Positions 3,976 to 29,899 of a stretch of 64,000 bases of DNA are shown here, one piece after another. The stretch lies in the NCBI RefSeq assembly GCF_030013205.1, contig NZ_CP122648.1; one strand, given 5' to 3'. The stretch's first letter is position 1; the number at the start of each line of letters is the position of its first letter. Source of the DNA: Escherichia coli (GTDB lineage Bacteria; Pseudomonadota; Gammaproteobacteria; Enterobacterales; Enterobacteriaceae). The translations under genes were made by a program, and so were the position numbers. Below the pieces are notes generated by a model. The model searched no databases, was not told where the DNA came from, and saw only the letters and a program-made list of their open reading frames with translations.

Positions 3976-4563
3976 TTGTGACCATAAAACATTTATCAAA
4001 AATCTACTACTAGCATAGCAAAGCTACAATTAACATAACCTTAATAGCCCCAACATAAAGAACAATCTGAATAGCTGCTCTATTTATTTCCGCTTGTTTA
4101 AGTTAAATATTTCCGCGCATCGATTAAAGATGATGTATCGTTTTCTGCGATGGGAATAGTCAAAAAAGAAAAACCAAGTATTTTTTGATGACAAAATGCA
4201 ACCAAGGAAAAATTTCTTTATTTTTTAATTGGATACAAAAATCACCTTAACGAAGAATATAATATATATCGTCAACCCATGCTCATGGCAGATTATTTTC
4301 TGAGCACGCAACCGCAGCTAACACCATTGCTATTAACAAATTTGCATCAATCCGCCATCAATTTACACACATTATTATGTGGTAATTGCCAAACGCTAAA
4401 TATGCGTTTTGTTATCTATGTATAAAAACAGCAACTTCAATGTCTTAATGGCAGTTTTTCTTGATTTTAATCAGCATTCATCGCCAATTTATTGGGCATA
4501 TTTTTTCCTTAAGTTTTAGGAATTTTTTATTATTTACTTTGGGGCCTGGAGACAGGAAAAATT

Positions 4564-26355: not shown

Positions 26356-27444
26356 ATGCCTCACAATCCTATCCGCGTGGTCGTAGGCCCGGCTAACTAC
26401 TTTTCACATCCAGGAAGTTTCAATCACCTGCACGATTTTTTCACTGATGAACAACTTTCTCGCGCGGTGTGGATCTACGGCGAACGCGCCATTGCTGCGG
26501 CGCAAACAAAACTTCCGCCAGCGTTTGAACTGCCAGGGGCAAAGCATTTTTTGTTTCGCGGTCATTGCAGCGAAAGCGGTGTACAACAACTGGCGGCTGA
26601 CTCCGGTGACGATCGCAGCGTGGTGATTGGCGTCGGCGGCGGCGCACTGCTCGACACCGCAAAAGCCCTCGCCCGCCGTCTCGGTCTGCCGTTTGTTGCC
26701 GTTCCGACGATAGCCGCTACCTGCGCCGCCTGGACACCGCTCTCCGTCTGGTATAACGATGCCGGACAGGCGCTGCATTTTGAGATTTTCGACGACGCCA
26801 ATTTTATGGTGCTGGTGGAACCAGAGATTATCCTCAATGCGCCGCAACAATATCTGCTGGCGGGGATCGGTGACACGCTGGCGAAATGGTATGAAGCGGT
26901 GGTGCTGGCTCCGCAACCAGAAACGTTGCCGCTAACCGTGCGGCTGGGGATCAATAATGCGCAGGCCATTCGCGACGTCTTGTTAAACAGTAGCGAACAG
27001 GCGCTTGCCGATCAGCAAAATCACCAGTTAACGCAATCATTTTGCGATGTGGTGGATGCCATTATTGCTGGTGGTGGGATGGTCGGTGGTCTGGGCGATC
27101 GTTTTACGCGTGTGGCGGCGGCCCATGCCGTGCATAACGGTCTGACCGTTTTGCCGCAAACCGAGAAGTTTCTCCACGGCACCAAAGTCGCCTACGGAAT
27201 TCTGGTGCAAAGCGCCTTGCTGGGTCAGGATGATGTGCTGGCGCAATTAACTGGAGCGTATCAGCGTTTTCATCTGCCGACTACGCTGGCGGAGCTGGAA
27301 GTGGATATCAATAATCAGGCGGAGATCGACAAAGTGATTGCCCACACCTTGCGTCCGGTGGAATCCATTCATTACCTGCCAGTCACGCTGACACCAGATA
27401 CGTTGCGTGCAGCGTTCGAAAAAGTGGAATCGTTTAAAGCCTGA
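26356..27444 (+). CDS. ybdH: hydroxycarboxylate dehydrogenase (iron-type alcohol dehydrogenase family)
   Basis: 362-aa ORF; matches YbdH/HcxA. Confidence 0.93.
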   Translation: MPHNPIRVVVGPANYFSHPGSFNHLHDFFTDEQLSRAVWIYGERAIAAAQTKLPPAFELPGAKHFLFRGHCSESGVQQLAADSGDDRSVVIGVGGGALLDTAKALARRLGLPFVAVPTIAATCAAWTPLSVWYNDAGQALHFEIFDDANFMVLVEPEIILNAPQQYLLAGIGDTLAKWYEAVVLAPQPETLPLTVRLGINNAQAIRDVLLNSSEQALADQQNHQLTQSFCDVVDAIIAGGGMVGGLGDRFTRVAAAHAVHNGLTVLPQTEKFLHGTKVAYGILVQSALLGQDDVLAQLTGAYQRFHLPTTLAELEVDINNQAEIDKVIAHTLRPVESIHYLPVTLTPDTLRAAFEKVESFKA

Positions 27445-27453
27445 CGTACATAT

Positions 27454-27651
27454 TTAGCAGCAGCGCGCGCCGCCTTTTCCACCGTAGCGCGCGTCCTGCC
27501 GCTCACGGAAAAACTCCTCGTAGGTCATCGGCGTTTGATCGGGATGGTTAACCCGCATATGTTCGACATAGTTGTCGTAATCAGGCATACCAATCATCAG
27601 TTTCGCCGCCTGACCTAAATATTTTCCGGCTTTTGCCAGTGAATCAAACAT
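27454..27651 (-). CDS. ybdD: small DUF466-family protein, CstA partner
   Basis: 65 aa ([21 protein letters not shown]...); C-terminal cysteines; sits downstream of cstA on the same strand. Confidence 0.85.
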
Positions 27652-27715
27652 CAATACCTCCGGTAAACAGGTTGCTGAGAGAGTGCATTAATAGCTATCA
27701 ACGCACTTGGTCAGT

Positions 27716-27790
27716 CCCCTCGCCCCATCGGGGAGAGGGTTAGGGTGAGGGGGAACTCTCGGAGCCATGCCAACATTCCCCCTCACTCTG
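27716..27790. repeat. GC-rich interspersed extragenic repeat (BoxC-like)
   Basis: cccctcgccccatcggggagagggttagggtgagggggaa plus a nearby ccccctcac copy in the cstA-ybdD spacer. Confidence 0.5.
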
Positions 27791-27793
27791 ACT

Positions 27794-29899
27794 TTAGTGC
27801 GCGCCTTTCGCCTGCGCCACGATCTCCTCGACATTTTCCGGCATCGGCTCATATGGCGTTTCTTTCGCCGTTGGCTTCGGCTCTTTCAATGCCGCAAGTG
27901 CCGTCTTAATCGAGAACAGTGCCAGAACCACCACGACCACCATAAAGAAGATGGTTAACCCGGCATCCAGACGGTTGTTGAACACCAGTTGCGCCAGCTG
28001 TGACTCAGTATACTGCGATGGAATATTGCCGCTGTCGATCATTGCCTGGAACTTGTTAGCAATCGCCAGGAAGCCGACTTTCGCATCCGGGCTAAACGCT
28101 TTCTGCCAGCCTGCGGTCAGGGTACAAATCAGCAGCCAGGCCGTTGGTACCAGCGCCACCCAGGCGTAACGTTGACGTTTCATTTTGAACAACACTACGG
28201 CACAGAGCATCAGCGCCATCCCTGCCAGCATCTGGTTGGCAATACCAAACAGCGGCCACAGAGTGTTAATACCGCCCAGCGGATCGACCACTCCCTGATG
28301 GAGGAAGTAGCCCCACGCCAGTACGCACAGCGCCGTTGCCAGCAGGTTAGCAGGCAGTGAATCGGTCCGTTTCAGGCCCGGAGACACCACGCCCAGCAGA
28401 TCCTGCAACATAAAGCGCGCAGCACGCGTACCTGCATCCACCGCCGTCAGAATAAACAGTGCTTCAAACAAAATGGCGAAGTGATACCAGAACGCCACAT
28501 CCATCATGCCGCCCAGCGCGCCGTGCAGAATGTAGGCCATCCCCACCGCCAGCGTCGGCGCACCGCCCGCACGGGAAATGATCGACTGTTCACCCACTTC
28601 GCTGGCAATCTGGTTGAGCGTATCTGGTGTAATGCTAAATCCCCAGCTACTCACCACTTGCGCTGCAGAAGCGACCACATCCGCCGTACCTGCCGGAGCC
28701 AGCACCGCCATCGGGCTGTTCATAGCGAAGTACACACCCGGATCGATGATACAGGCGGAAACCAGCGCCATAATCGCTACGAAGGATTCCATTAACATCC
28801 CGCCGTAGCCGATAAAACACGCCTGCCCTTCGTTCGCCAGCATCTTCGGCGTGGTACCGGAAGAGATCAGCGCATGGAAGCCAGACACCGCGCCACAAGC
28901 GATGGTGATAAACAGGAACGGGAACAGGTTACCGGTCCATACCGGGCCAGTGCCATCGACAAATTTAGTTAGCGCAGGCATGGTCAGCGTCGGGCGCATA
29001 ATCAAAATGCCTACCGCCAGACCGACGATGGTCCCGATTTTCAGGAAGGTTGAGAGGTAGTCGCGCGGGGCCAGCAACAGCCACACCGGCAGCACCGCCG
29101 CCACAAAACCGTAACCCACCAGCATCCAGGTCAGCTGCACGCCGGTAAAGTCAAAGTACGGTGCCCAGGTCGGACTTTCTGCCACCCAGCCGCCAGAGAT
29201 AATGGCGAAAATCAGGAACACCAGGCCGATGACCGACACTTCGCCAATACGCCCCGGACGCAGATAGCGCAGGTAGATCCCCATAAACAGCGCCAGCGGA
29301 ATAGTGAACGCAACGGTATACGTTCCCCACGGGCTATGAGTCAGGGCTTTCACCACGATCATCGCCAGCACGGCAAGGATAATGACCATGATCATAAAGC
29401 AGGCCACCAGCGCTATCACCCCGGCGGTTGGCCCCATCTCTTCTTTGACCAGCTCACCCAGCGAGCGACCATCGCGGCGCGTAGAAACAAACAGCACCAT
29501 GAAATCCTGCACCGCACCGGCGAGAACCACCCCGGCGAGCAGCCAGATCATCCCCGGCAGGTAGCCCATTTGCGCTGCCAGCACCGGCCCAACCAGCGGA
29601 CCTGCTCCGGCAATGGCCGCAAAATGGTGACCGAACAGCACTTTCTTGTCCGTCGGCACATAGTCCAGCCCGTCGTTATGGCGCACCGCTGGCGTCATAC
29701 GCGTCGGGTCAACCGCCAGCACATTTTTGGCGATATACAGACCATAAAAACGGTAAGCGATCAGATAGATACAGACCGACGCCACCACAATCCACAGCGC
29801 GTTGATCTGTTCCCCACGATTTAAAGCAATATATCCCAGAGCAAATGCTCCCATTACAGAGAGCACTGTCCAGACGAGGTATTTCCCTGATTTGTTCAT
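27794..29899 (-). CDS. cstA: carbon starvation protein A (pyruvate/peptide transporter)
   Basis: 701-aa polytopic membrane ORF; matches CstA. Confidence 0.96.
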   Translation of the reverse strand: MNKSGKYLVWTVLSVMGAFALGYIALNRGEQINALWIVVASVCIYLIAYRFYGLYIAKNVLAVDPTRMTPAVRHNDGLDYVPTDKKVLFGHHFAAIAGAGPLVGPVLAAQMGYLPGMIWLLAGVVLAGAVQDFMVLFVSTRRDGRSLGELVKEEMGPTAGVIALVACFMIMVIILAVLAMIVVKALTHSPWGTYTVAFTIPLALFMGIYLRYLRPGRIGEVSVIGLVFLIFAIISGGWVAESPTWAPYFDFTGVQLTWMLVGYGFVAAVLPVWLLLAPRDYLSTFLKIGTIVGLAVGILIMRPTLTMPALTKFVDGTGPVWTGNLFPFLFITIACGAVSGFHALISSGTTPKMLANEGQACFIGYGGMLMESFVAIMALVSACIIDPGVYFAMNSPMAVLAPAGTADVVASAAQVVSSWGFSITPDTLNQIASEVGEQSIISRAGGAPTLAVGMAYILHGALGGMMDVAFWYHFAILFEALFILTAVDAGTRAARFMLQDLLGVVSPGLKRTDSLPANLLATALCVLAWGYFLHQGVVDPLGGINTLWPLFGIANQMLAGMALMLCAVVLFKMKRQRYAWVALVPTAWLLICTLTAGWQKAFSPDAKVGFLAIANKFQAMIDSGNIPSQYTESQLAQLVFNNRLDAGLTIFFMVVVVVLALFSIKTALAALKEPKPTAKETPYEPMPENVEEIVAQAKGAH

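Follow-up and report, generated by a model that had tools for sequence, protein, structure and literature searches.

The GC-rich palindrome between cstA and ybdD in the analysed window, a 64-kb stretch of Escherichia coli DNA, is a member of the BoxC family of interspersed repeats, and we regard it as probably a tolerated passenger of this spacer that exerts a generic hairpin effect at most. Its family membership, its copy number and the absence of promoter and terminator signals were observed here. They bear out the sequence-only reading, which had proposed a BoxC-type interspersed repeat and not a simple terminator: the copy matches the published consensus exactly, belongs to a multi-copy family, shares its flanks with copies of E. 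coli K-12, and none of the hairpins is followed by a T-run. The identification of an unexplained GC-rich palindrome as a catalogued repeat has little weight alone, and because the palindrome is a catalogued BoxC it need not be treated as a new regulatory element. The BoxC family, its properties, and the presence of this locus in other strains are already known.

The two genes lie on the minus strand and are arranged as follows:
27794..29899, minus strand: cstA, pyruvate/proton symporter of 701 aa (open reading frame list and RefSeq annotation of matching genomes)
27794-27796, minus strand: stop codon TAA of cstA
27652..27793, minus strand: cstA-ybdD intercistronic spacer of 142 bp, presumably transcribed with both genes
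27657..27661, minus strand: Shine-Dalgarno sequence GGAGG of ybdD, separated from the ATG by 5 nt and predicted to be mostly free of base pairs
27454..27651, minus strand: ybdD, YbdD/YjiX family, 65 aa, 198 nt (RefSeq annotation and open reading frame list)

The start of ybdD is placed at the ATG at 27651-27649 by RefSeq (65 aa) and at a TTG one codon upstream in the open reading frame list (66 aa, MMFDS...). The spacing of the GGAGG motif suits the RefSeq start, and the motif is conserved in the alignments of the spacers from E. coli and related species. Open reading frames of 54 aa overlap the spacer on both strands and were put down to the GC-rich repeat sequence.

The palindrome quoted by the sequence-only reading was located at 27716-27755 on the plus strand, inside the 142-bp spacer, and the second copy of ccccctcac reported together with it is found at 27778-27786. 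A repeat search returned two inverted-repeat pairs, one with arms of 17 nt each at 27739-27755 and 27776-27792 (88% complementary), and one with arms at 27716-27725 and 27743-27752. The core of 36 nt (27717-27752, plus strand) reads CCCTCGCCCCATCGGGGAGAGGGTTAGGGTGAGGGG. The consensus of BoxC/PIT/TMECO is CCCTCNCCC-N3-6-GGGNGAGGG-N3-GGGNGAGGG (Holder et al. 2015, PMC4666352), and it is matched exactly once in the 64-kb window, at 27717-27751 on the plus strand, so that this is the only BoxC copy there, while none of 100 dinucleotide-preserving shuffles contained a match. According to the types defined in PMC4666352 the window copy is of type A, with TTA as its second loop, and because one mismatch is present between the blocks C1 and G2 it is a "type A mm" copy. 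From several "type A mm" copies of K-12 (Table 1 of PMC4666352) the 36-mer of the window differs in the first loop only. Sequence was also retrieved at the published coordinates of eight other K-12 copies, and in these the core is preceded by GC(A/G)C..CGGTC and followed by GGGG(A/G)A. The corresponding flanks of the window copy are GCACTTGGTCAGTC and GGGGGAA. Given these common flanks the element comprises about 53 bp and is longer than the string first picked out, being built from the 5' extension GCACTTGGTCAGTC (14 nt, 27703-27716), the 36-nt core and a GAA tail. For comparison, lengths of 50 and 56 bp have been quoted for BoxC (PMC2267715). The position is strictly intergenic, between the stop codon of cstA and the start codon of ybdD, and the parts are:
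27703..27755, plus strand: BoxC/PIT/TMECO element of about 53 bp in G-rich orientation (consensus match and shared flanks)
27717..27725, plus strand: block C1, CCCTCGCCC, pyrimidine arm of the Watson-Crick hairpin
27731..27739, plus strand: block G2, GGGAGAGGG, pairing with C1 with one mismatch
27743..27751, plus strand: block G3, GGGTGAGGG, following the TTA loop, putative third strand of the published intrastrand triplex and also pairing with C4
27776..27788, plus strand: C4 arm, TTCCCCCTCACTC, the "second ccccctcac copy" of the sequence-only reading
27683..27706, no strand assigned: AT-rich imperfect palindrome, GTGCATTAATAGCTATCAACGCAC, third hairpin of the RNA fold

The hairpin of G3 and C4 has 11-12 bp and a loop of about 20 nt. 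Hairpins of this kind also occur in E. albertii, E. whittamii, and B2-type E. coli, where the BoxC core is missing. A fourth arm that pairs with the third block is found in some BoxC copies only, and it looks like what is left of an inverted tail-to-tail pair. The AT-rich palindrome of the window is composed of the 7 nt TATTAAT, which occupy the position of a REP element in other strains, and the 5' extension of BoxC.

BoxC (Bergler 1992), "PIT" (Hoyne and Maher 2000, 2002), and "TMECO" (PMC4666352) are names for the same family. With a 44-nt query around the core, members were found in 5424 of 5426 complete E. coli genomes, at a median of 18 places per genome (range 1-33). The genome-wide count suggested by the sequence-only reading was thereby run, and the motif is not unique: it occurs at 22 places in NZ_CP028192.1 (CFSAN018748), a genome that is 100% identical to the window over the tested stretch. 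Only 66 of 90,073 places are located on plasmids, and the others are chromosomal. A survey by Bachellier from 1999 is reportedly also among the sources for BoxC. The 36-mer of the window appears in Table S8 of Holder et al. 2015 (PMC4666352) under O157:H7 Sakai, with the coordinates 713521-713556, a position that we confirmed to be within the cstA-ybdD spacer, and this entry means that the BoxC locus between cstA and ybdD is already part of the published catalogue. The spacer is absent from the list of 23 K-12 elements in the same publication because the third block is degenerate in K-12; it reads GGGTGAGAGGG and fails the consensus. In its consensus, its assignment to type A mm, its intergenic site, its family size of about 20 copies per genome, its flanks, and its variability between strains the window copy is alike to the published elements, and nothing essential is different. 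Another BoxC element within an operon is present in the pstA-pstB spacer of K-12 (L018, 3908330-3908690). There the C-rich complement is also on the mRNA strand and a REP is nearby, the same combination of REP and BoxC as in the cstA-ybdD spacer of K-12.

Several other repeat families share the general appearance of BoxC. The REP/BIME (PU) elements are likewise GC-rich extragenic palindromes in 3' or intercistronic positions, are transcribed into stem-loops, and vary in presence between strains; however, their consensus is different (GCCGGATAAGGCG...CGCCGCATCCGGC), and the window allele has an alignment gap instead of a REP. For REP, roles in stabilising mRNA and in binding proteins are documented, but we know of no demonstrated function of BoxC. 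The ERIC/IRU and MITE-like repeats are likewise short, non-coding, interspersed, palindromic, and transcribed within operons. ERIC comprises about 127 bp and is unrelated to BoxC in sequence, and MITEs are characterised by terminal inverted repeats and target-site duplications.

Within E. coli the spacer is highly variable. The alignment of 11 strains revealed at least eight structural alleles, with the BoxC intact in the window, Q65, E166, PK8217, and also Sakai, degenerate in the K-12 type, PD23, and A29, and the core absent from the 32A22 type and from the B2-type allele of APEC E12053. A core-less spacer of 112 bp is encoded in 1189 of 5426 E. coli genomes (about 22%) and a BoxC-type spacer in about 4,200-4,400. 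The exact window allele was found in only 26 genomes by megablast with the bare 142-bp spacer, a search that misses alleles due to its 28-nt word requirement and was used for this count only, diagnostic queries having been used for the other alleles. A REP is present at this spacer in most strains and absent from the window, where the REP (PU) consensus palindrome was looked for by alignment with K-12, E166, and PK8217; in K-12 (L001:290-330), E166, and PK8217 it reads TAGGCCGGATAAGGCGTTCACGCCGCATCCGGC. In place of the REP the window contains the 7 nt TATTAAT, and PD23 lacks even those. In the loop of the first hairpin (27769-27778) the 10-nt unit AATGTTGGCG is present once in the window and E166 and twice in tandem in K-12, Q65, PK8217, and others, which looks like a slippage-type length polymorphism. 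In E. coli A29 (L006, NZ_CP028746.1), a capybara isolate, cstA is annotated as a frameshifted pseudogene and the BoxC contains a 6-nt deletion. E. albertii, E. whittamii, and one genome of the cryptic clades have the G-arm/C-arm hairpin and a REP but no core. The spacer of the B2 type (APEC E12053, L009:199-310) has neither core nor REP and has kept the hairpin AGCCCTCTTAATTCAGGAGGGCATTTGTA, which aligns with the hairpin next to ybdD in Citrobacter and Salmonella (L056, L035). The spacers of the outgroups and the 32A22-type allele resemble empty sites. In the B2-type allele a portion of the BoxC 5' extension (CCGAGCGTGTTGATAGC) has survived, and this suggests a secondary deletion of the core. 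Given this variety of alleles, the specific BoxC sequence looks dispensable at this position. The spacer offers a natural allelic series, with the BoxC intact, degenerate, or absent, the REP present or absent, and the ancestral hairpin retained, and with this series it could be asked if the proportions of a transporter and its small partner protein depend on such repeats.

The transcript strand carries the C-rich complement of BoxC. Downstream of the UAA the RNA contains first the G arm GAGUGAGGGGGAA, which is separated by a loop of about 20 nt from the C arm UUCCCCCUCAC (complementary to block 3). CCUAA comes next, then CCCUCUCCCC-GAU-GGGGCGAGGGG, which is complementary to blocks 2 and 1, then the counterpart of the 5' extension in complement and the AT-rich palindrome, and finally the exposed GGAGG located 5 nt before the AUG of ybdD. 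In the predicted fold there are three hairpins, two of them stable and adjacent to each other and the third AT-rich, and the first strong GC hairpin begins 10 nt past the stop codon of cstA. The 145-nt RNA of the transcript strand has a predicted folding energy of -63 kcal/mol compared to -45.1 +/- 4.4 kcal/mol in shuffled sequences (z = -4.0; none of 200 shuffles was as low), and the first 83 nt contribute a structure of -43.9 kcal/mol with z = -4.2. A scan of both strands of 27300-28100 found neither sigma-70-like promoters nor intrinsic terminators, and a sigma-70 promoter specific to ybdD within the spacer was rejected on this result. None of the spacer hairpins is followed by a T/U-run, the sequences after them being CCUAACCC and ACUGACCAAG. 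A structured cis-regulatory RNA or an sRNA family was also considered and was rejected because the search of 26500-29000 against Rfam 15 with a permissive E-value returned no significant family. The sole match, Antizyme_FSE, a frameshift element of a eukaryotic family, reached 19.1 bits where the gathering score is 40 (E = 0.95) and was regarded as a chance match.

As a passenger, the BoxC copy would be one of several GC-rich palindromic elements that the spacer accumulates and exchanges, here with an older G-arm/C-arm hairpin as its neighbour just past the cstA stop codon. Transcription probably runs from cstA through the element into ybdD, and the resulting mRNA would carry the C-rich complement of BoxC and fold into the two adjacent stable hairpins and the AT-rich third one. 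Translation of YbdD would then be independent and use the exposed GGAGG of its own gene. If expression is affected at all, the cause would be the generic behaviour of a stable intercistronic stem-loop, which might for example hold up 3'-to-5' exonucleases to the benefit of the upstream cstA segment, and the BoxC sequence as such would be irrelevant. At the DNA level the element may add to the indel-prone character of the spacer. In K-12 the deletion of ybdD lowers pyruvate uptake and 3-fluoropyruvate sensitivity (Hwang 2018, PMC5847655), and this phenotype indicates that ybdD is expressed there. Because K-12 has a degenerate BoxC together with a REP, an intact element is not needed for the expression of ybdD. 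For the same reason, results on the expression of cstA and ybdD in the K-12 reference may not transfer to the window allele. In the literature we found no usable 3'-end mapping or operon data for cstA-ybdD, Term-seq included; Hwang 2018 (PMC5847655) gives no transcript structure for the two genes, and Gasperotti 2020 does not mention ybdD.

The spacers of other species were also compared. YbdD orthologues were collected from species-representative genomes at 80 loci, 74 of which allowed both limits of the spacer to be set. A typical cstA-ybdD spacer comprises 48-63 bp, and the shortest have 14-20 bp. If a stable hairpin is taken to require a helix of 6 bp or more and a minimum free energy of -10 kcal/mol or lower, the spacers of 71 of the 74 Enterobacteriaceae species contain one (median z -3.65), and the three species with 14-20-nt spacers have none. 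The hairpins fall into classes that are unrelated in sequence, namely BoxC, CCCTCNCC/GGNGAGGG hairpins, REP-like palindromes, and terminator-like hairpins. The simple CCCTCNCC/GGNGAGGG hairpins are found in Citrobacter, Salmonella, and Kosakonia, the REP-like palindromes in Enterobacter soli, Lelliottia, Leclercia, and Kluyvera, and the terminator-like hairpins in Atlantibacter. A comparable structure is present in the paralogous gene pair: the btsT-yjiX spacer of K-12 (L100:78-132) comprises 49 bp, and within it a GC hairpin of 8 bp precedes UUUGUUCUU, an arrangement with the appearance of a terminator or attenuator. This hairpin occupies the corresponding site between its two genes and likewise forms a stable GC stem-loop, but it is single-copy and followed by a U-rich tract, whereas the window element is a dispersed repeat without a U-tract. 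The layout of transporter, hairpin, and small gene is common to cstA-ybdD and btsT-yjiX.

The sequence-only reading had suggested that the repeat might influence mRNA stability or the balance of expression between the two genes. As the main rival to the passenger reading it is conceivable, though we hold it to be the less probable case, that the hairpin cluster is a functional intercistronic RNA element, either a barrier against decay or a partial attenuator, which would set how much CstA is made relative to YbdD, and that BoxC is just one interchangeable version of it. Such a role would not be exclusive of BoxC being a passenger. It is suggested by the retention of a spacer hairpin in almost all of the species in spite of the unrelated sequence classes, by the hairpin between btsT and yjiX, and by the B2-type allele of E. 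coli, which has retained the hairpin that is shared with Citrobacter and Salmonella. Taken together, the hairpins across the species and in btsT-yjiX mean that a hairpin may be under selection, and to assign no function at all may be too strong for the structure. However, three species do without any hairpin, the identity, number, and strength of the hairpins vary widely even among E. coli, and GC-rich palindromes are generally common after stop codons. In addition, promoter or terminator activity of PIT elements was not found in the published assays (Hoyne and Maher 2002) as far as they are summarised in PMC4666352, and BoxC-type elements are described there as leaving RNA polymerase unaffected while blocking DNA polymerase in vitro.

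We consider a role of the element at the DNA level unlikely. An intrastrand triplex formed by the C1/G2 duplex and G3, or a G-quadruplex in the single-stranded state, would stall the polymerase and turn the spacer into a hot spot of rearrangements. The blocks G2 and G3 (27731-27753, plus strand) read GGGG-AGA-GGG-TTA-GGG-TGA-GGGGG and fit the pattern of a G-quadruplex with four G-tracts. This G-rich strand is antisense to the mRNA, and it is also the one for which an intrastrand triplex has been reported in vitro. Triplex formation was observed with oligonucleotides nearly identical to the window copy, and CD and NMR data of type A and type B oligonucleotides are available (PMC4666352), and purine-motif triplexes do not form in RNA (Holder et al., PMC4666352). 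According to the same publication, TMECO loci vary between strains more than control intergenic regions, which would be consistent with the hypervariability of the cstA-ybdD spacer (at least eight alleles in 11 strains). The deletions leaving a hairpin that Holder et al. termed the "palindrome effect" (PMC4666352) look similar to the B2-type and E. albertii-type alleles. Against such a role, in vivo DMS footprinting found no triplex (PMC4666352), and in single-stranded DNA the predicted pairing of G3 with C4 competes with the binding of a third strand, as judged from a Watson-Crick fold in which triplexes are outside the model. Moreover, much of the local variation is due to the gain and loss of REP and to the duplication in the loop and not to BoxC, and the association may run in the opposite direction, the repeats surviving where change is tolerated.

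The recurrence of BoxC in this particular spacer is not obviously explained by a random passenger. Strict BoxC motifs, 17 in total, are present in the spacers of 11 non-Escherichia species and absent from the remainder of the 124.5 kb that were fetched, which are mostly coding. The genera are Enterobacter, Lelliottia, Leclercia, Phytobacter, Pluralibacter, Pseudocitrobacter, and Cedecea. The orientation in these species varies, with motifs in both directions, in inverted pairs, or beside a REP. Six species contain head-to-head inverted pairs of one type A motif (TTA-like loop) and one type B motif (CCG/CTG loop), which follows the rule of A + B inverted pairing reported for K-12 (Holder et al., PMC4666352). 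The BoxC-bearing loci outside Escherichia are:
L030, L033, L076, L079, L080, L086, at about 560-690 in each: inverted pairs of types A and B
L050, L053, L059, L072, L085: further loci with BoxC in the spacer

When spacers with and without BoxC are compared in the Enterobacter-like genomes and in Leclercia, the difference is in both cases a clean indel of about 45 bp, located at one and the same position beside a REP, and the motif within this indel is of type B in one and of type A in the other. No target-site duplication was seen there or in the other comparisons of filled and empty sites, within Escherichia and at adk-hemH. Many related species have only a CCCTCTCC-loop-GGAGAGGG hairpin, whose arms are equal to blocks 1 and 2 of BoxC. 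These data would fit a spread of BoxC by homology- or structure-directed copying into existing hairpins, or its origin from such hairpins by duplication of the 12-nt G arm. That the cstA-ybdD spacer is a preferred landing or conversion site for BoxC across the Enterobacteriaceae seems improbable to us at present, and if it were true it would give the BoxC family a mechanism of dissemination. That several genera have BoxC at this one spacer is a minor new finding, and it may provide a modest lead on the spread of the family.

Finally, it is very hard to imagine that the element is a plain intrinsic (Rho-independent) terminator of cstA, since, despite the strong GC hairpin 10 nt after the stop codon and the terminator-like hairpins with U-runs in the spacer of some other genera, there is no T-run after any hairpin, the scan revealed no terminator-like site and no promoter from which ybdD itself could be transcribed, and the family of about 20 copies is also located in non-terminator contexts such as pstA-pstB.

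Two other BoxC loci were inspected for alleles with and without the repeat. At adk-hemH (L103:110-365 compared to L101 and L102) about half of the E. coli genomes have a BoxC-containing segment of about 235 bp, and the remaining genomes (e.g. Nissle and O145 RM13516) have an unrelated segment of 131 bp whose hairpin is not the same. Between the alleles the whole segment is exchanged (about 150 bp against about 50 bp) where a clean insertion would have left the rest intact, and the comparison is uninformative on mobility. A search for a BoxC-free allele at zntA-tusA returned no clear empty allele. The collection of YbdD loci also contained two entries with unexpected labels. A contig of 465 bp labelled Streptomyces sp. 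DH24 (L024, coverage 0.73) encodes a YbdD that is 98% identical to that of E. coli, and a metagenome-assembled genome labelled "Bacillota bacterium" (L050) contains an Enterobacter-like locus with the order cstA, REP, BoxC, and ybdD. Both are probably cases of contamination or mis-binning in public assemblies.
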